Source: a virus. Taken from it: a stretch of 12,237 nucleotides of DNA. The position numbers and the translations under genes were made by a program. The notes beneath the pieces were generated by a model that did no database searches, was not told the DNA's origin, and worked only from the letters and a program-made list of their open reading frames with translations. Location of the stretch: the UHGV virus genome UHGV-0179089; one strand, written 5' to 3'. This document shows, piece after piece, positions 1-8,870 of this stretch; position 1 is the stretch's first letter, and every line of letters starts with the position of its first letter.

Positions 1-801
1 GTCCGTCACGGTACACTCTGTAAAGTCGACCGCCGACAGCTTTGTCGCCGCCAGGTAAGCCCGGTCGATGGGCAGTGTGGCCGTCTCCGGCTCCGGACCG
101 AAGGCTTTTGTCAGCTCCGTGCGGAAGAAGCCGCCCAGCTGCTGCTTCATCAGGGCTTTTTTCTTCTTCTGCGCACGCTGGAATTTTGCCGAGTTTTTCT
201 CTGCAAGGTTGGCAAGTTTCATGGTGACCTGCGCCAGCGTCATATCACGTCCACTCATCGGCGCAACGGTGTGAGTAACGTCTTTTTTATTCAGTAAGAA
301 CTGGAAAGCAACCAGCGTATCGCTATTTGTGATCCGGTTTTCCGCCGTCGGGCTATGAAACAGAATGCTGATAGTCTGACCATCACTGAGCGGAATAATG
401 GCTGGCAGGACCGGCAGCCCGTTAACGTTACGCGCCCGGCCAATTTCAGCGCCGCCGATCGCTCGCGCGCCGCTCTGGGCCACATCACCCGTTTTATCAC
501 TCCCCGCAGAGATTCCTGTACCATTCAACTTCTGGTTCAATGCCCGGACAAATGCCTGCATGGTCCGGTGTAACTGCAAACGAGTAGAACTAATCGCCTC
601 CAGTAAATCCGTAGCACACCAGTGGATCGGCGTGTCATAGAAGAACGTAGCCTCGATTTCCTCCAGCGTGTTGGATTCCGTCATCAGATAGCGGTCCTCA
701 CCGGCCATTAATGCGCGATATTCATCATCAGTCACCGGCGGGGGAAGCACGTCAAGCCCAGGCTTAATCGTCACCCCTTTATTGATATTGAACTGTTCCA
801 T
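1..801 (-). CDS. Hypothetical phage protein, N-terminal 267 aa (start ATG at 801..799; C-terminus beyond left edge). Paralog of the adjacent 203-aa protein; tentatively DarA/Hdf-like (P1 antirestriction/capsid-associated family)
   Basis: Minus-strand frame checked triplet by triplet from 801 to 1 and contains no stop. Shares the motif KNSAKFQ(R/K)..K.K with the next gene. Start lies 1 nt after the stop of the upstream gene (operon-like). DarA/Hdf assignment rests on recalled P1 operon layout, not on sequence identity. Confidence 0.55.
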   Translation of the reverse strand, partial: MEQFNINKGVTIKPGLDVLPPPVTDDEYRALMAGEDRYLMTESNTLEEIEATFFYDTPIHWCATDLLEAISSTRLQLHRTMQAFVRALNQKLNGTGISAGSDKTGDVAQSGARAIGGAEIGRARNVNGLPVLPAIIPLSDGQTISILFHSPTAENRITNSDTLVAFQFLLNKKDVTHTVAPMSGRDMTLAQVTMKLANLAEKNSAKFQRAQKKKKALMKQQLGGFFRTELTKAFGPEPETATLPIDRAYLAATKLSAVDFTECTVTD

Positions 802-802
802 G

Positions 803-1414
803 TTAATTTCCTGCTTTCAGTTGCTTAAGACGGCGTTTGAGTTCGCCATTTCGGGCCTTTTCGTTATTGAGTCGGCCTGTCTCCTTATCCAGCTTCGCCC
901 GCAAATCAGTGATCTGCTGTTGATTGAAAGACACCGAGTTCTGCGCTGATTTATAAGCGGCAACCACCTGAGCATTCCGCTGTTTTGCCTCTTGCAGGCG
1001 CTGAAAGTTGGATTTTACTGCCGGTTTCTTGTCTACCGGATTGGCAACACGTTTCGCTTTGGCGATCAGTGATTTCTGGAATTTTGCGGAGTTTTTGCGG
1101 GCCGCTTGCCCCATGACGGTACCAAGCGTCTTGATATCCGGCGACTGAGCGTTAGGAATAGCTTTTCCATTCAGCCTCACAGACGATATATCGCCAGTAT
1201 CGTTTACCTGTATGGCAAGAATTTGTCCGTCGTTAAGAACCAGCTTTGCGGTTTTAACTTTAACGCCATCTTTCGTTGTTGCGCGGTTGCTGGAGTCAAC
1301 CTCAATTACCGTAACACCGGTTTTATTGATCGCCGCGATAAGGGATTTCAGCCCCTTTTCATTAACCTGGTCAAAATCGACCGTTGCATACTTATTTTTC
1401 GTCATCTGACACAT
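803..1414 (-). CDS. Hypothetical phage protein, 203 aa (probable true start at the ATG 1405..1403, giving 200 aa); tentatively Hdf-like (homolog of DarA fragment)
   Basis: ORF track. An AGGA Shine-Dalgarno sits about 8 nt upstream of the internal ATG at 1405. Lys/Ala/Gln-rich C-terminal half; shares a motif with the partial downstream ORF. Its 5' end overlaps the stop of the 147-aa ORF. Confidence 0.6.
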   Translation of the reverse strand: MCQMTKNKYATVDFDQVNEKGLKSLIAAINKTGVTVIEVDSSNRATTKDGVKVKTAKLVLNDGQILAIQVNDTGDISSVRLNGKAIPNAQSPDIKTLGTVMGQAARKNSAKFQKSLIAKAKRVANPVDKKPAVKSNFQRLQEAKQRNAQVVAAYKSAQNSVSFNQQQITDLRAKLDKETGRLNNEKARNGELKRRLKQLKAGN

Positions 1415-1835
1415 CCTGTGCGAGATTTATTACGTAACTTCTGCGGATTTGCTGAGTAACAGGGAAAATCCGATACAACGGGTTAATGAACGAGTCGCCA
1501 TGCGTAACCATGACGTTGAAATGCCACAGCCGTTCTCCTTTACCCATATATTCAGTGGGTATGTATAACCATTCGCTGTTTTCGCCCTGTTCAGCCGATG
1601 TCAGACAACGTTGCTCGCCTTCAATCACTGTCGTCGGCTTCTGAACATCGCGGATCCAATACCTGACCGTTGCGCCGCGCAAAAAAGGAAATTTGGACCG
1701 GTATTTGAACGGCACCCGGATGAAGCCCGGTTTAATTTCCACTTCGCCAAGCTCTAAATTCGTGATGTCCTTGCGTTTTAGCAAATAGCGATCGGCTAAG
1801 GCTAACGCAAGAGCGCATACACCCCAGCCAATCAT
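1392..1835 (-). CDS. Hypothetical protein, 147 aa, with a hydrophobic N-terminus; possible lysis regulator (size and position resemble P1 LydB, tentative)
   Basis: ORF track. N-terminal hydrophobic stretch MIGWGVCALALALA. Its start overlaps the stop of the 109-aa holin-like gene (ATGA at 1832-1835), suggesting translational coupling. Confidence 0.5.
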   Translation of the reverse strand: MIGWGVCALALALADRYLLKRKDITNLELGEVEIKPGFIRVPFKYRSKFPFLRGATVRYWIRDVQKPTTVIEGEQRCLTSAEQGENSEWLYIPTEYMGKGERLWHFNVMVTHGDSFINPLYRIFPVTQQIRRSYVINLAQDVSDDEK

Positions 1836-2161
1836 TTCCCGCCTCCCTTTTTCACCAAACTTGTAAGAACATTCAGAATGCTATCGATATTCACTCGTTT
1901 CATCCCTGAAATCACCTCATGACCGTTATTGCTGGCTATCGTTACCATTAAGTACGTAATTGATAACTCCCAGCCCTCGTGTTGCCCCAATAGGTACGCC
2001 ACCGCGCCAGCTGTCACTGCAACAAAGATCTCCGTAACCAATCCCAACAAATTGCCAGACTGACGACCGTCTCGGACATCCATCAGGAACGTGCCTATCC
2101 CACCAATTACTGAAAGCAGGAGCGCAATAGCAACTGGAGCTAATTCCTGTGTGTCAAGCAC
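1832..2161 (-). CDS. Small membrane protein, holin-like, 109 aa (GTG start); tentatively LydA-type holin
   Basis: Strong AGGAGGG Shine-Dalgarno 5 nt upstream of the GTG at 2161. Two or three predicted hydrophobic helices and a charged C-terminus (KKGGGK). Paralogous to the 98-aa ORF upstream. Confidence 0.6.
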   Translation of the reverse strand: MLDTQELAPVAIALLLSVIGGIGTFLMDVRDGRQSGNLLGLVTEIFVAVTAGAVAYLLGQHEGWELSITYLMVTIASNNGHEVISGMKRVNIDSILNVLTSLVKKGGGK

Positions 2162-2166
2162 AAGTT

Positions 2167-2188
2167 CCCTCCTACGTTGTCAGGAGGT
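2167..2188 (-). promoter_or_regulatory. Stem-loop that pairs the Shine-Dalgarno of the 109-aa holin-like gene with an upstream anti-SD (mRNA CCUCCU ... AGGAGG)
   Basis: Plus-strand CCTCCT (2168-2173) and AGGAGG (2182-2187) are a perfect 6-bp inverted repeat with an 8-nt loop. On the minus-strand mRNA the downstream arm is the ribosome-binding site. Confidence 0.4.
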
Positions 2189-2228
2189 AATGGTATGCAA
2201 AGTAACTTCTCAACCGGTCATTTGTTGC

Positions 2229-2525
2229 TTAAGAGGCATTTCTATTGAGGTACGAATCGATAAGCCTTTGTAACCTTTCAAGAATGAGCCTGTTATTGAT
2301 GCTGCAAATAAGAGTCACGCAATTCTGAAGACTTTCATCCATCCCCTTATATTCCGCGAAACACATGCCTATAAAGCCTGCAAGTACGGCAGAAATACAC
2401 TCGGCCAACAATTTCCTGCATGACGCTTCGTAACGTTTTTCACGAACCCCATTCAGAAACGAATGCACTCCGCCAAGGATGGATATGAGAATTATTTTTA
2501 AATCAAACATAATAATTTCCCTCAT
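2229..2525 (-). CDS. Small membrane protein, holin-like paralog, 98 aa (probable start at ATG 2510..2508, giving 93 aa)
   Basis: ORF track. GAGG Shine-Dalgarno 9 nt upstream of the internal ATG. Alignable to the 109-aa protein (S-x-[IL]-GG-x-x-x-FL ... AV-x-AG ... VT-[IL]-I-x-S-x-NN). Confidence 0.55.
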   Translation of the reverse strand: MREIIMFDLKIILISILGGVHSFLNGVREKRYEASCRKLLAECISAVLAGFIGMCFAEYKGMDESLQNCVTLICSINNRLILERLQRLIDSYLNRNAS

Positions 2526-2637
2526 GGTGAGTTAAACATCACTGGGAAACGGTATGCACTTTGTGATTTCCACACACACTGGTTTTTGTTAATTAAAATC
2601 CGCAGCTTGCTATAAATAACGATAGTGAGCAGAAAAT
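2526..2637. promoter_or_regulatory. Divergent intergenic region between the holin-like operon (minus) and the invertase (plus); candidate invertase promoter (-35 TTGTTA 2587-2592, -10 TATAAA 2611-2616)
   Basis: 112-bp AT-rich spacer between divergently oriented genes. Hexamers are 18 bp apart and about 20 nt upstream of the invertase ATG. Confidence 0.3.
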
Positions 2638-3198
2638 ATGCTAATAGGCTATGTACGCGTATCAACAAATGAACAAAACACTGCTTTGCAACGAAATGCC
2701 CTTGAAAGCGCAGGATGTGAGCTAATTTTTGAGGATAAGGCGAGCGGCAAAAAGGCTGAACGCCCTGGGTTAAAAAAGGTTCTGCGTATGCTTTCCAGAG
2801 GTGACACCCTGGTCGTATGGAAGTTAGATCGTCTTGGGCGCAGCATGCGTCACTTAGTTGTGCTGGTGGAAGAGCTGCGTGACAGAGGCATTAACTTCCG
2901 GAGTCTCACTGACTCCATCGACACCAGTACACCAATGGGGCGCTTTTTCTTTCACGTAATGGGGGCGCTGGCAGAAATGGAACGCGAACTTATCGTCGAA
3001 CGTACACGCGCTGGGCTTGATGCAGCTCGCGCGGAGGGGCGAATAGGAGGCCGTCGGCCTAAATACCCGGAAGAGACATGGCAGCAAATGCGACGATTGC
3101 TAGAAAATGGCATCCCCCGTAAACAGGTTGCAATCATCTATGATGTGGCTATGTCCACGCTTTATAAAAAGTTTCCGGCATCATCATTTCAATCTTAA
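2638..3198 (+). CDS. Serine-type DNA invertase, Hin/Gin/Cin/Pin family, 186 aa
   Basis: N-terminal catalytic signature [14 protein letters not shown]. Family-conserved blocks [63 protein letters not shown]-terminal helix-turn-helix [21 protein letters not shown]. Confidence 0.95.
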
Positions 3199-3215
3199 AC
3201 CTTGGTTTAAGAGAA
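3190..3215. other. cix/gix/hix-type 26-bp crossover site for the invertase (CAATCTTAAACC-TT-GGTTTAAGAGAA)
   Basis: Two 12-bp half-sites in inverted orientation around a 2-bp core; the inner 9 bp of each are a perfect dyad (TCTTAAACC / GGTTTAAGA). Overlaps the invertase stop codon (3196-3198) and lies just upstream of the start-less tail-fibre cassette. Confidence 0.75.
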
Positions 3216-3245
3216 CTCGGCACCAGCGGCGAAAAGATCCCCCTG

Positions 3246-5351
3246 TTGAGCACGGCTAACACATGGAGTGCACGCCAGACTTTCAACGGTGGGATCACCG
3301 GTGCGCTGACAGGGAACGCCGATACCGCAACGAAATTAAAAACAGCGCGGAAGATTAACAACGTTTCATTTGACGGTTCGGCGGACATAACGCTGACTCC
3401 TGCGAACCTTGACGTTACCAGCCTGACGTTTATGAAGCACAATGGAATAATCCCAACCACTGACAATCTTGAATCCTATGGTCCAGAAGAAAAATATCTT
3501 GGGACGTGGTCATGCCCGTCACAATCCACTGCAAAACCAGAGTCTGGTTACCCTGAAGATAAAGGAAATGGGGTTCTGGAAGTATTCAATGCTGGTCGCT
3601 TTCACTGCACACAACGCTACACCACCCGAACCGGTAATATTTACATTCGGATGCTTGATGCAGAATGGAACCCAGCCAGTCCAACATGGAGTGCATGGAG
3701 AGTTATTACAAGCGGGACTCGACCATTAAGCACGTCAATTGACCTGAATTCTTTAGGTGGTGCGGAACACCTGGGAATATGGCGCAATAGCAGTACATCA
3801 ATAGCCTCATTTGACCGTCATTTCCCGGAGGAAGGGAGTTTTGGGCAGGGTATTCTGGAAGTCTTTGAAGGCGGTCTGTATGGGAGGATGCAACGTTACA
3901 CCACCCGTAGTGGGACTATGTACATTCGCGGACTGACTGCCTCATGGGATGCAGAAAATCCACAATGGGAGGACTGGATTGCTGTTGGGTATCAGTCCAC
4001 GGGATGGACTTATTCAGGGGATCTTGATGACCTTTTAAAGCCTGGTATTTATAGCGTTACGAAACAGGCCACAAATGCACCTGTCACCGACTCTAAAGAT
4101 CTTGCTGTTGGCTCAATAGTTGAAGTGAAAAAACGTTGTGATATTGAATCGTATATCCAGACATACACGACTGTTTCAGCAACGGATGCCTATAAAAACC
4201 GGACATTTCAGCGAACCCGCGCCAGCGGTGAAACTGACTGGGGGGAATGGGCGGAAGTATACAACTCAAAATCATTACTCACTAAATTAGGTGTCGGCGG
4301 TGTTACCGACAGGTTATCCAGTCTGGACTGGCAGACCTACGACTTTATACCGGGCAGCATGATAACTGTCAGGCTTTCAGATATGACCAATATTCCCGAT
4401 GGGATGGAATGGGGCGTCATTGATACTAACCTGATAAATATCACTGTTGGCCCCAGTGAAGGCGGAGGTGGCGCCCGTTCAATGCATGTATGGCGCAGCA
4501 CTTCAAACAAAACCAACTATCGTTTTTTTACAGTCCGCTTATATGGCAATCCTGGGGAGCGTAGCTTCAATATTCGTCGGCTACCAATTATCGACGAAGC
4601 CCAGACATGGGAGGCAAAACAGACATTCAGTGCAGGCCTTTCTGGTGAACTGTCCGGCAATGCGGCTACAGCAACAAAGCTGAAAACGGCAAGGACAATT
4701 AACGGCGTAAAATTTGACGGCTCGGCAAATATTGAAGCATTTCCGCCAGGTGTTCCGTTGCCGTGGCCATCAGATACACCACCTGCGGGCTATGCAATTA
4801 TGCAGGGGCAGACGTTTGATAAGGCAGCATATCCGAAACTGGCTATAGCCTATCCTTCTGGTGTTATTCCTGATATGCGCGGCTGGACAATCAAGGGCAA
4901 ACCCGCCAGTGGGCGTGCTGTATTGTCACAGGAACAGGACGGGATTAAATCGCATACTCACAGTGCCAGTGCGTCAAATACGGATTTGGGAACGAAAACA
5001 ACCAGTTCGTTTGATTACGGCACGAAGACGGTCAGTACGTTTAATCATGGCACAAAATCAACGAACAATACGGGCAATCATACGCACACTGTCGGTGGTG
5101 TTTATGGCGGCGACTCTGTCGGTGGAAAACAGCGTGTACAGGCTTCAGGAAACAATCAGGTGTCCAGCACCGCCGGAGCGCACGCCCATACGGTGGATAT
5201 TGGTCAGCATAACCACACTGTAGGTATTGGTGCCCATGCACACACTGTGGCCCTGGGTGCGCACGGACACACCATCACGGTAAATGCTACGGGTAATACC
5301 GAAAACACCGTCAAAAACATCGCATTTAACTATATTGTGAGGCTTGCATAA
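3246..5351 (+). CDS. Tail-fibre variable C-terminal cassette (Sv/H-like receptor-binding region) with no start codon of its own; frame is open from 3168, through the crossover site
   Basis: No ATG or GTG between the upstream stop (3165-3167) and the conserved motif; the track start is a TTG. Conserved tail-fibre junction motif [13 protein letters not shown]...FDGSADI. Tail-collar-like block [21 protein letters not shown]. Five C-terminal HxH repeats. Confidence 0.85.
5076..5273 (+). repeat. Five tandem His-x-His repeats (NHTHTV, AHAHTV, QHNHTV, AHAHTV, AHGHTI) in the tail-fibre tip
   Basis: Read directly from the translation of 3246..5351. Resembles the metal-coordinating HxH motifs of T4-type fibre tips (established knowledge). 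Confidence 0.6.
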
Positions 5352-5929
5352 TGGCTTTCAGAATGAGTGCAGAAGCACAAACTATCCGCGTTTTCAATTT
5401 ACTTGATGGAACCAATGAATTTATTGGTGAAAGTGACGCATATATTCCGCCGCATACAGGTCTGCCTGCAAACAGTACAGATATTGCACCGCCTGATATT
5501 CCTGCTGGTTATGCAGCCGTTTTCAATGCAGATGAAATGAAATGGGAACTGATGGAAGACCATCGCGGAAAGACCGTCTATGAAACGAAAACGGGAGCAG
5601 CCATTTATATTTCTGAACTTGGCGTATTACCTCCAGACGTGACAGCCATTTCCCCGGATGGGGATTATCAGAAATGGAACGGCAATGCGTGGGTGAATGA
5701 TGAGAATGCAGAGCGTGATGCGCTTGTCAGAGCGGCTGACTCTCAGAAGAAAGAGCTGATTGCATATGCAGGTGAAATTATTGCCACGCTGCAGGATGCT
5801 GTCGATTTAGATATGGCTACCGAGGAAGAAAAGTTAAGCCTGACACACTGGAAAAAATACCGTGTGCTACTGAATCGCGTTCAGCCGGAAAATGCCCCGG
5901 ATATTGAATGGCCGAAAATGCCGCAATAA
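5351..5929 (+). CDS. Tail-fibre assembly chaperone (Tfa / Mu U / P2 G family), 192 aa
   Basis: Start overlaps the tail-fibre stop (ATAATG). N-terminal motif [44 protein letters not shown] and C-terminal [11 protein letters not shown]...IEWPKMPQ are typical of this family. Confidence 0.9.
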
Positions 5930-6496
5930 ATCGTATTAGAACTGGTGTGAGATTAGTCATCTATGGCACAGAGTAAAACCTAATCTGACAGTCCACTCTG
6001 TGCCAGCAGCAATTGCGTGGCCAAAGGAAACACTGCCAGCACAATCAGGTATTGATATGTCGATGTAGTCCTGAATGGCTGGCAACTCACCTAACCTAAT
6101 GAGCTCCCGTTCAACCGGAACATAAGGTCAATTCTGTTGTATGATTTTTCCCTTTTTGAAAGAATAATAGCGATAAATGACGAATTTTTGGAACCCTGCT
6201 TGTTGCTGAAGATACGTTGTCACAATGGAAGAACGTGACTTACATCGAAGTGATGGGAGTATCCGTCAAGATCTAATACACGAAAATAGAAGTGAAAAGG
6301 TACGCTGCGAGGGCGCTCGCCTGTCCGCTCTGTCTGCGAAGAAATAATTTATTTTAGGCCACCCAAGCGGCTTGTTTAAGATTAGTACTCTTATCTAGAA
6401 AACTCGTAACTGACTTGAATGTATGGTAACATGATAATAACAAGGTTCGAACATCCGCCAATGCAATATACTTAGAACATATAAATTGAATCTGAC

Positions 6497-7378
6497 ATGG
6501 ATAAAAATAAATTGGTTAAATTTTCACTAGTCGAAAACGCCTTGGATTCTATTGAGCTAGGTTTGGAGTATTTTTACGAAGCAAAAAAAGAATTCACGCC
6601 ACGTAAATATAAACAATGCCTAATTAATATGTTTCATGGCTCGGAGTTAATCCTGAAAGAAATATTGAGTAGGATAAATATTATACTCATATTCGACAAA
6701 AACTCTTTATTTAAAATTTGCAAAGATCCTTTAAGTCCTACTGGGGATGAGTTGTATAAATTAAAATCAATAGATATTAATAGCTTATGCGATGAGGTTG
6801 TGAAGCATTATCCGGACGAGTTTAAAGGAAAGCTTAATATTGTCAAGGGCCTAGCTAGAGAAAGAAACAAGATACAGCATTTTGCAATCGAAATATCACC
6901 AGAGATATTATCAAGGTTACTCTCAAGTCTTTACATTGATGTTTTTAAGCCATCCTTTAAAATAATTTTATCTGAGCTTGATTATGTTAATCAATACAAT
7001 TCGCTGATTGAAAGGCAGATTATAGGTGCTGAAAAGACATTTCTTAAAATACAAGGTGATACTGATAACTATTTAGCTCTTTGTCCAAAGTGCGAGAACC
7101 ATTCTCACTTTATATTGTACAAAGGTACGGGTTACCCTGTTGAGACCTATTGTATTTGCTGTGATTATAAAAATACAGATATTGACATATCAGATTATCT
7201 GGTATGTCCTGAATGCGGATTCCCGTCATTGATATTTGATGAAAAAAATAATGCAGGAGTCTGCCTCAACGAGAAGTGTTACTATGGAATACAAGGTGGA
7301 TTCGTAGAAATGGAACCATGTGAAAATTGTGATGGCTTTATTATTGAAGGTTCATGCCCAGAATGTGATACGGATTGA
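6497..7378 (+). CDS. AT-rich cargo gene, hypothetical 293-aa protein: helical N-terminal region with an R-x4-H (HEPN-like) motif plus a C-terminal triple CxxC zinc-ribbon tail; candidate defence or abortive-infection effector
   Basis: Single long ORF in an island much more AT-rich than its flanks. Motif RERNKIQH at aa 121-128. Cys pairs CPKC, CICC, CPEC, CLNEKC, CENC, CPEC between aa 196 and 291. Occupies the slot between tfa and FI where P2 carries Z/fun. Confidence 0.75.
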   Translation: MDKNKLVKFSLVENALDSIELGLEYFYEAKKEFTPRKYKQCLINMFHGSELILKEILSRINIILIFDKNSLFKICKDPLSPTGDELYKLKSIDINSLCDEVVKHYPDEFKGKLNIVKGLARERNKIQHFAIEISPEILSRLLSSLYIDVFKPSFKIILSELDYVNQYNSLIERQIIGAEKTFLKIQGDTDNYLALCPKCENHSHFILYKGTGYPVETYCICCDYKNTDIDISDYLVCPECGFPSLIFDEKNNAGVCLNEKCYYGIQGGFVEMEPCENCDGFIIEGSCPECDTD

Positions 7379-7555
7379 GATTACTCGACGATTGGTGCAA
7401 CTGCATGCTTGCAAAACTCTATGGTGCTAACGGAGTCAATTACTGAATTGTTGTTACCCATTGACGGATAGATTTCGGTTGCTTAACTGTGAATGGAGTA
7501 GCATGACAGAGTTTTTTACCAGTCCGATTAGCTTCTATCAAATAGCAGTTCGGAC

Positions 7556-7584
7556 AGGCGGGCTGATTGCCCGCCTTTTCTTTA
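7556..7584 (+). terminator. Rho-independent terminator downstream of the cargo gene
   Basis: 8-bp GC-rich stem AGGCGGGC/GCCCGCCT with a 5-nt loop, followed directly by TTTTCTTT. Confidence 0.7.
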
Positions 7585-7601
7585 TCTGTTGTTTCATCCC
7601 C

Positions 7602-7616
7602 TGACCAGCCAGGTCA
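7602..7616 (+). promoter_or_regulatory. 15-bp palindrome TGACCAGCCAGGTCA upstream of FI; candidate late-promoter activator site (P2 Ogr-type)
   Basis: Perfect dyad centred about 70 nt upstream of the FI ATG, where P2-type late promoters carry an activator dyad. It does not match the TGT-N12-ACA consensus exactly. Confidence 0.3.
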
Positions 7617-7679
7617 AATAGCGTCTCATGCTCTGCACAACAGAAAATAGTTGCACCCATTAACCACGGAGTTAAACGG

Positions 7680-8870
7680 ATGAGTGACTATCATCACGGC
7701 GTGCAGGTGCTGGAGATTAACGACGGCACCCGCGTCATTTCCACCGTATCAACCGCCATTGTCGGCATGGTCTGCACAGCCAGCGATGCGGATGCGGAAA
7801 CCTTCCCCGTCAATAAACCGGTGCTGATTACCAATGTGCAGAGCGCGATTGCAAAGGCCGGTAAAAAAGGCACGCTGGCGGCGTCGTTACAGGCCATCGC
7901 TGACCAGTCAAAACCGGTCACCGTTGTCGTACGTGTGGAAGACGGCACCGGCGAAGACGAAGAAACGAAACTCGCGCAGACCGTTTCCAATATCATCGGC
8001 ACCACCGACGAAAACGGTCAGTACACCGGACTGAAAGCCCTGCTGGCGGCGGAGTCGGTAACCGGTGTTAAACCGCGTATTCTCGGTGTGCCGGGGCTGG
8101 ATACCAAAGAGGTGGCTGTTGCACTGGCATCCGTCTGTCAGAAGCTGCGCGCTTTCGGGTATATCAGCGCATGGGGCTGTAAAACCATTTCCGAGGTGAA
8201 AGCCTACCGTCAGAATTTCAGCCAGCGTGAGCTGATGGTCATCTGGCCGGATTTCCTCGCATGGGATACGGTCACCAGTACCACCGCCACCGCGTATGCC
8301 ACCGCCCGTGCGCTGGGTCTGCGTGCCAGAATCGACCAAGAGCAGGGCTGGCATAAAACGCTGTCCAACGTCGGGGTAAACGGTGTTACCGGCATCAGTG
8401 CGTCCGTATTCTGGGATTTGCAGGAGTCCAGCACCGATGCTGACCTGCTGAACGAGTCAGGTGTCACAACGCTGATTCGCCGTGACGGTTTCCGCTTCTG
8501 GGGTAACCGTACCTGCTCTGATGACCCGCTGTTCCTCTTTGAAAACTACACCCGCACCGCGCAGGTGCTGGCCGACACGATGGCTGAGGCGCACATGTGG
8601 GCGGTGGACAAGCCCATCACCGCAACGCTGATTCGCGACATCGTTGACGGCATCAATGCCAAATTCCGTGAACTGAAAAGCAACGGTTATATCGTGGATG
8701 GCACATGCTGGTTCAGTGAAGAAGCCAATGATGCGGAAACCCTCAAGGCCGGAAAACTGTATATCGACTACGACTATACCCCGGTGCCTCCTCTCGAAAA
8801 CCTGACCCTGCGCCAGCGTATTACTTCAAGATACCTGGCAAGTCTGGTCACCTCGGTTAACAGCAATTAA
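7680..8870 (+). CDS. FI: Contractile tail sheath protein (P2 gpFI-like), 396 aa
   Basis: Length and sequence (MSDYHHGVQVLEINDGTRVISTV...) match P2 FI closely from memory; GGAG Shine-Dalgarno upstream; followed by FII. Confidence 0.95.
   Translation: MSDYHHGVQVLEINDGTRVISTVSTAIVGMVCTASDADAETFPVNKPVLITNVQSAIAKAGKKGTLAASLQAIADQSKPVTVVVRVEDGTGEDEETKLAQTVSNIIGTTDENGQYTGLKALLAAESVTGVKPRILGVPGLDTKEVAVALASVCQKLRAFGYISAWGCKTISEVKAYRQNFSQRELMVIWPDFLAWDTVTSTTATAYATARALGLRARIDQEQGWHKTLSNVGVNGVTGISASVFWDLQESSTDADLLNESGVTTLIRRDGFRFWGNRTCSDDPLFLFENYTRTAQVLADTMAEAHMWAVDKPITATLIRDIVDGINAKFRELKSNGYIVDGTCWFSEEANDAETLKAGKLYIDYDYTPVPPLENLTLRQRITSRYLASLVTSVNSN

Follow-up and report, generated by a model that had tools for sequence, protein, structure and literature searches.

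The Z-region of a P2-like element in UHGV virus genome UHGV-0179089 holds one foreign gene (6497..7378, + strand, ATG start), which encodes a 293-aa protein combining a predicted HEPN domain with three zinc-ribbon-like units. All positions refer to the whole stretch analysed, 12,237 nt on one strand, which is called the window throughout. We consider that this gene is probably a moron whose product acts alone as an effector against phages or mobile elements and belongs to the HEC-08 / PDC-S64 superfamily. A preliminary description of the same DNA had expected anti-phage cargo at this place, and this is still the best reading, by way of homology to HEC-08, a validated phage defence. The gene does not represent a new category of system: the domain architecture goes back to a prediction of 2013, experimental validation of a member followed in 2024, and the slot is a textbook site of foreign genes. 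What is new here is a divergent, compact subfamily and its wide range of vehicles.

Architecture and family membership of the 293-aa protein

Apart from the gene at 6497..7378, which was delimited as an open reading frame (ORF) and assigned by PDC-S64, PHROG and HEC-08 comparisons, no ORF above 47 aa was found in 5930-7680. Its GC content is 0.332 and its GC content at third codon positions (GC3) is 0.30, against a GC3 of 0.67 in the sheath gene FI and 0.46 in the tail-fibre gene, so that the earlier view of a sole substantial ORF with foreign codon usage was well founded. A structure model of the protein (pLDDT 88.9) has the all-helical up-and-down bundle of HEPN topology, and the predicted domain extends over approximately aa 7-185 (6515..7051, +). 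Within this bundle lies the predicted catalytic motif R123-N-K-I-Q-H128 (R-x4-H; 6863..6880, +), part of the RERNKIQH at aa 121-128 that had been pointed out in the preliminary description. Residues R123, N124, K125, Q127 and H128 are invariant across 34 homologues, and the arginine and histidine of the motif remain at least 90% conserved in a sample of 42 distant relatives.

The final 100 aa contain twelve cysteines that form three Cys4 zinc-ribbon-like units (7082..7366, +), consisting of C196/C199 with C219/C222, C237/C240 with C256/C261, and C275/C278 with C287/C290, and all twelve are at least 90% conserved across the 34 homologues. These correspond to the three zinc ribbons of CxxC pairs described earlier, with the correction that the 256/261 pair is Cx4C and not CxxC. 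At the sequence level the TFIIB zinc ribbon (PDB 1pft) matches aa 234-274, the middle cysteine unit, at E 1.1e-3, and relatives of the window protein match double-zinc-ribbon Pfam families. The only structural echoes of the C-terminal module are template-reading zinc-binding domains of DNA primases, and a Foldseek search of a viral structure library returned nothing significant (best E 0.035). The check by profile search and structure prediction that had been proposed for this protein recovered the HEPN fold in the model and zinc-ribbon similarity by sequence. The ratio of nonsynonymous to synonymous substitution rates (dN/dS) is 0.07-0.10 against the two closest genes, indicating purifying selection.

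Standard annotation misses this branch. Pfam gave nothing significant on the window protein (Zn_Ribbon_TF, E 0.018; DUF7602, E 0.2), NCBIfam gave no family match, and the PHROG that was matched (phrog_20819, E 6e-80) is labelled "unknown function." The PADLOC family PDC-S64, a computational candidate for which no naming paper was found in the literature, matches aa 7-174 at E 2.6e-22, covering only positions 2-157 of the 339 in its profile. A word-indexed search of 5.8 billion proteins yielded only 33 clusters, the best of which is 87% identical, from Salmonella diarizonae, Enterobacter bugandensis, Providencia rettgeri, Vibrio/Pseudoalteromonas and Deefgea. When a window-family profile was searched exhaustively with HMMER, 537 cluster representatives were retrieved at E <= 0.001, many of them approximately 300 aa long and aligned over their full length. 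The sample of distant relatives mentioned above consists of the window protein and 41 of these representatives; PDC-S64 matches 41 of the 42 sequences, HEC-08 35, the PADLOC version of DUF3644 34 and the Pfam version 21, the window protein itself falling below detection by Pfam DUF3644. In the alignment of this sample the Cys pairs, like R123 and H128, are at least 90% conserved. DUF3644 is a HEPN family (EC042_2821-type) known to occur in fusions to winged helix-turn-helix, restriction endonuclease and zinc-ribbon domains and in restriction-modification operons (Anantharaman et al. 2013, PMC3710099). The window protein shares with PDC-S64/DUF3644 its N-terminal part of about 170 aa, and both the zinc-ribbon fusions and the restriction-modification association had been noted in that 2013 survey.

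The closest relative with a tested function is HEC-08 (Hma-embedded candidate 08) of E. coli ECOR52 (WP_150698383.1), a single-gene HEPN and zinc-finger defence that lowers phage plaquing in E. coli and whose activity is abolished by mutation of H128, the histidine of its Rx4-6H motif (Payne et al., 10.1101/2024.01.29.577857). With the HEC-08 sequence taken from Table S2 of that study, BLASTP aligned the window protein collinearly over 260 residues (20% identity, E 5e-5), with RNKIQHF opposite RNRVVHF, the two H128 residues paired and the first three Cys pairs in register. Comparison of the window-family profile with the single HEC-08 sequence by hhalign gave 82%, and profile-profile comparison with a HEC-08 family alignment gave a probability of 99.9% (E 4e-33; residues 3-291 against 17-358), a value that has to be read with the caveat that the family alignment was built from proteins first retrieved with the window-family profile. 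Sixty-seven proteins from the window-family profile search also match HEC-08 by phmmer, down to E 5e-21. The two proteins are each the product of a single gene in which an N-terminal DUF3644-type HEPN domain is followed by several C-terminal CxxC zinc-finger or zinc-ribbon units, they have the RN-x3-HF motif in common, and they are collinear over their full length at the profile level. The C-terminal parts of both are without a good structural match, and there the zinc-ribbon similarity is one of sequence only. They differ in setting, HEC-08 having been found embedded in an Hma system and the window gene in the P2 Z-region.

These profile relationships place the window protein in the HEC-08 / PDC-S64 / DUF3644 superfamily, as a compact and divergent member. 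The "undescribed system" that the preliminary description had allowed for is accordingly given up, as the protein falls within DUF3644 HEPN (PMC3710099), PDC-S64 and the HEC-08 superfamily. The recently validated class of single-gene HEPN defences gains with it a divergent, compact branch that annotation has not covered so far, and a 293-aa protein with only three zinc sites would offer a convenient minimal model for zinc-ribbon control of a HEPN RNase.

Identity of the window protein to the minimal HEPN toxins (HepT/MNT: SO_3166, 5yep; 7ae2; 8xdj) and to the HEPN RNases Csm6 and the AbiA HEPN domain is 6-14%, and in contrast to these the window gene comes with no MNT partner, CARF domain or polymerase domain, having a fused triple zinc-ribbon instead. 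A HepT-MNT type VII toxin-antitoxin system was rejected because no island ORF of at least 50 aa lies beside the gene and no nucleotidyltransferase neighbour occurs in the homologue loci. An Ishtar system consists of one protein, in which an N-terminal HEPN domain (DUF4145 or DUF3644) is joined to a C-terminal beta-rich domain, and its demonstrated activity is plasmid loss (expulsion of RP4) and not phage defence (10.64898/2026.07.06.735840). Ishtar proteins resemble the window protein in being single HEPN proteins that are also found in Vibrio integrons and near defence genes. Membership was rejected, since the window-family profile had no match at E <= 10 among six Ishtar family sequences taken from Table S3, and these six differ further in having no conserved Cys4 clusters.

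A solitary cassette in the Z-region and in other vehicles

The gene is carried by an AT-rich foreign cassette in the P2 Z-region (6011..7551, +), which replaces fun(Z) and was delimited by composition and by its lack of P2 and P24A7b homology. This island of 1.54 kb has a GC content of 0.365 against 0.519 in the remainder of the window, and is flanked by the tail-fibre assembly gene tfa (5351-5929) and by FI (7680-8870). In BLASTN the backbone homology to P2 (NC_001895) and to Peduovirus P24A7b stops at approximately 6005-6010 and restarts at 7552-7557. The same gap in the backbone holds fun(Z) in P2, and the slot assignment is right for this reason. An AT-rich stretch of foreign composition between tfa and FI, in the position of P2 Z/fun, had been recognised beforehand, and both points are confirmed by the composition and the alignment; the extent of 6050-7400 proposed for it is slightly widened by the homology breaks. 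The Z-region is a recognised site of horizontally acquired genes in P2-like phages (PMC3091744; 10.64898/2026.02.27.708500). No direct repeats that might represent a transposition or integration footprint were found flanking the island, and an Rfam scan gave no match inside it.

P2 Fun(Z), which is responsible for lysogenic conversion and T5 exclusion, occupies the same tfa-FI slot between the same bounding backbone sequences, and fun(Z) and the window gene are both AT-rich, non-essential cargo. The likeness ends there, since Fun(Z) has 528 aa, is encoded on the opposite strand and shows no sequence similarity to the window protein. No fun(Z)-like sequence was found anywhere in the island, and BLASTP against P2 Fun(Z) (NP_046777.1) reached a best E of 3.3, so that homology to Fun(Z), which the preliminary description had considered, was rejected.

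The island behaves as one cassette. Over 6012-7409 it shares 80% identity with loci L006-L008 on three unrelated contigs, and over 6503-7540 it shares 80% with loci L005 and L018, the genomic settings of all five being unrelated. In the closest cassettes, L006-L008, an intact ORF of 62 aa (MNNESAPSIETQLAAAEDALSQWEERDLHRSDGS...; 6658-6846 in L006) lies 155 bp upstream of the HEPN gene and is followed by the palindrome GGCCGAC-TA-GTCGGCC. The window has a degraded copy of this ORF (6163..6347, +), traced by tblastn and DNA alignment, of which a 40-aa ORF is left at 6225-6347. Its start codon is lost, and the alignment shows that 9, 3 and 1 nt have been deleted, the 1-nt deletion shifting the frame. 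By tblastn the 62-aa product matches the window in two distinct frames. The ORF is absent upstream of more distant homologues. A toxin-antitoxin pair formed with the 62-aa ORF was rejected on the grounds of this decay and of its absence from most homologue loci.

Homologues are found in an unusually wide range of vehicles, including P2-like prophage slots, a lambdoid-type prophage edge, an integrative and conjugative element (ICE)-like element, Vibrio-type integrons and conjugative plasmids. In S. diarizonae the homologue lies in an ICE-like element and adjoins an EcoRII restriction-modification pair, in Enterobacter it occupies the ogr end of a further P2-like prophage (a different slot in the same type of phage), and in Providencia it lies between two integrases at a prophage edge, with further homologues beside umuDC-like genes in phage-like contigs. 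In Vibrio/Pseudoalteromonas the homologue stands alone as an integron cassette, with VCR-like attC repeats on either side. On contig GCA_040777365.1 (locus L014, 1-12492) an array with at least 14 attC-like repeats of approximately 120-130 nt (ATAACAAAGCGTTTAAGAG...GGCGTTA) was observed, where the HEPN zinc-ribbon gene forms the cassette at 3602-4492 amid unannotated cassettes. By tblastn, a full-length homologue of 46-49% identity is present on 266 plasmid records (Escherichia 130, Salmonella 94 and Klebsiella 23), 253 of which are typed conjugative.

On the Klebsiella pneumoniae IncF plasmid pF13_1 (locus L016, 3914-5873) the 46%-identical homologue begins 2 nt past the stop of a gene for a 362-aa "transcriptional regulator." The regulator on such Klebsiella IncF plasmids is annotated PifC in one record, and the homologue also stands beside AAA ATPase genes and a vapBC pair, a setting reminiscent of a compact island for defence or stability on a conjugative plasmid. 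The PifC-like regulator and the homologue were rejected as a conserved two-gene operon because the genes upstream of other homologues are unrelated. Indeed, the upstream neighbours of six homologues are mutually unrelated, and no conserved partner gene was found among them.

At the DNA level, megablast and blastn found the gene in none of 5,426 complete E. coli genomes, 1,649 of which match the flanks only. It is absent from P2, P24A7b and L-413C, and tblastn against 50,697 phage records gave no match. A scan of IMG/VR returned one close homologue (88%) and one distant homologue, neither of them in the P2 slot. Comparison of these loci shows that the window subfamily travels as a solitary single-gene cassette. 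The varied contexts, the unrelated upstream genes, the decay of the 62-aa ORF and the low dN/dS together argue for an autonomous, selected, single-gene accessory function.

Proposed mode of action and rival explanations

HEPN RNases dimerise to build their active site. The window protein would likewise probably dimerise through its HEPN domain, with two R123/H128 motifs forming a metal-independent RNase site, and its C-terminal triple zinc-ribbon module may serve as a sensor or substrate binder for phage nucleic acid or protein. In the lysogen the gene would use a promoter of its own, the hairpin of the backbone keeping the resulting transcription out of the late tail operon, and infection would unleash the RNase, so that cleavage of RNA stops the infection or the infected cell. 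For the window protein its expression, dimerisation, RNase activity, trigger, RNA target and abortive outcome are thus all steps that we infer, next to the island limits, the HEPN fold, the motif, the Cys4 sites, the full-length homology to HEC-08, the purifying selection and the solitary mobility that are observed for the gene.

Several points weigh against a defensive role. Phage defence has been demonstrated for HEC-08 alone and is a prediction for the window subfamily, and RNase activity is predicted, for HEC-08 as well. The two proteins have only 17-20% identity, the HEC-08 hidden Markov model of PADLOC matches the window protein weakly (E 3e-4), and HEC-08 is a 366-aa protein with extra cysteine pairs and inserts, in contrast to the 293 aa and exactly three Cys4 units of the window protein. 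Since most plasmid homologues reside on conjugative plasmids, the distribution fits inter-element competition or addiction equally. Furthermore, the hybrid of P1-like and P2-like DNA and the truncated tail-fibre gene mean that the element may be defective, and expression in a working lysogen is not assured.

Given the many homologues on conjugative plasmids, the main rival is a toxin of addiction or inter-element competition, a HEPN RNase that stabilises its carrier, be it a plasmid, a prophage or an integron cassette, or attacks incoming plasmids, and we regard this as unlikely. It draws on the 253 of 266 plasmid records that are conjugative, on the action of Ishtar proteins, with their N-terminal HEPN (DUF4145 or DUF3644), on plasmids (10.64898/2026.07.06.735840), and on the small upstream ORF present in the closest cassettes. 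That ORF has decayed in the window, however, while the HEPN gene is under strong purifying selection, which speaks against a toxin because a free toxin without its antitoxin would not be tolerated. Nor does any conserved antitoxin-like neighbour accompany the homologues, whose upstream genes are unrelated; the six Ishtar sequences neither match the family profile (E <= 10) nor possess Cys4 clusters; and HEC-08, the nearest relative with a tested function, acts against phages. A similarly low probability is given to the idea that the compact subfamily (PHROG 20819) is functionally distinct, with a zinc-ribbon module that reads invading single-stranded nucleic acid, either phage or conjugative DNA or RNA, and thereby gates the HEPN RNase. 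If this were true, a one-protein sensor-effector would police phages and plasmids together, which would explain the locations in prophages, in integrons and on hundreds of conjugative plasmids.

Anti-phage or anti-element cargo of the HEC-08 kind has also to be weighed against a role in the cycle of the phage itself, be it RNA processing, regulation of late transcripts or exclusion of P2-like phages only. The location between two late operons would suit such a role, as would late read-through, which could arrive at the gene given that no P2-like V-operon terminator was found between tfa and the gene, and the P2 genes known from such slots (fun(Z), old and tin) have exclusion functions. We nevertheless consider it highly improbable, since the gene is missing from P2, P24A7b, L-413C, every phage record searched and the 5,426 complete E. 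coli genomes (1,649 of them matching the flanks), which makes it dispensable for P2-like phages, and since the same gene, foreign in composition here, recurs in an integron, an ICE-like element and plasmids. It is also very unlikely that the gene lacks any current function and is an inert passenger, carried along by a defective or chimeric element or a wrongly assembled contig. The junction of P1-like (151-3400) and P2-like DNA (from 3409 onward) within a tail-fibre gene whose constant N-terminal part is missing, the single cix-like site of the window and the decay of the neighbouring small ORF are what one would expect of such a passenger, but the ORF of the HEPN gene is intact with every conserved catalytic and cysteine residue in place, its dN/dS is 0.07-0.10, and a promoter-like element upstream of it is conserved.

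Slot edges, transcription signals and the hybrid backbone

At the left edge of the slot, a repeat search located a perfect 11-bp inverted repeat (5964-5974 / 5995-6005; 5964..6005, no strand assigned) with a 20-nt loop, just past the tfa stop codon. It is kept in P2 and P24A7b, the homology to which ends directly after it, and by this alignment it is part of the conserved P2 backbone. At the right edge, a terminator scan gave a GC-rich hairpin with a T-run, resembling an intrinsic terminator (7556..7584, +; hairpin 7556-7576). This hairpin is phage backbone and not cargo, because it is conserved in P2 and P24A7b, where it stands immediately upstream of the activator site of the late promoter pF, which it probably shields from transcription leaving the cargo. 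The terminator proposed earlier at 7556-7584 therefore exists, and it does not count as a feature of the island. Both edges of the Z-region slot are thus conserved stem-loops, and homology between differently loaded phages breaks exactly there. The pF activator (Ogr) binding site itself was placed approximately at 7584..7612 (+) by transferring the P2 annotation, which puts it 97-69 bp upstream of FI, through the alignment; on this basis the putative site is backbone context outside the cargo.

Upstream of the HEPN gene, a consensus scan gave a sigma-70-like promoter candidate, CTGACT-17-GATAAT (6410..6438, +), that lies 59 bp before the ATG and may drive the gene; both hexamers are largely kept in the 80%-identical cassette L006. 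The V-operon terminator, located 365 bp after gene G in P2, has no counterpart that could be found in 5930-6496 of the window, and the terminator scan found no terminator-like site between tfa and the HEPN gene. Late transcripts of the tail-fibre operon could therefore extend into the cargo gene.

The context of a P2-like prophage, as it had been described, holds from approximately 3409 onward, where the window is 94-96% identical to P2-like phages, and does not hold for the left third, as 151-3400 are about 96% identical to P1-like phage-plasmids. The P1-like genes comprise the end of darA, an hdf-like gene (803-1414), lydB (1392-1835), two LydA-type holin genes (1832-2161 and 2229-2525) and a Cin-type invertase gene (2638-3198). 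The junction falls inside the tail-fibre gene, where P1 Sv'/U' and P2 H/G are homologous, and could be a real recombinant, for example of a P1 plasmid with a P2 prophage, or an assembly chimera. A cix/gix-type crossover site (AAACCTTGGTTT, 3197-3208) overlaps the end of the invertase gene, and no second one was found in the window. The tail-fibre frame is open across this site, as expected of a silent variable segment of the Sv' type. Measured against P24A7b gpH, approximately 226 aa of constant N-terminal sequence are missing from the fibre ORF (3246-5351). From the single crossover site and the missing N-terminus it follows that the inversion switch, and probably the fibre gene, is incomplete.

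A last observation concerns the 3' end of tfa, where the Rfam family IS009, an E. coli small RNA candidate, gave a sub-threshold match at 5694-5892 (54 bits against a gathering threshold of 117, E 3e-10), which probably reflects an origin of that Rfam family in a prophage tfa.

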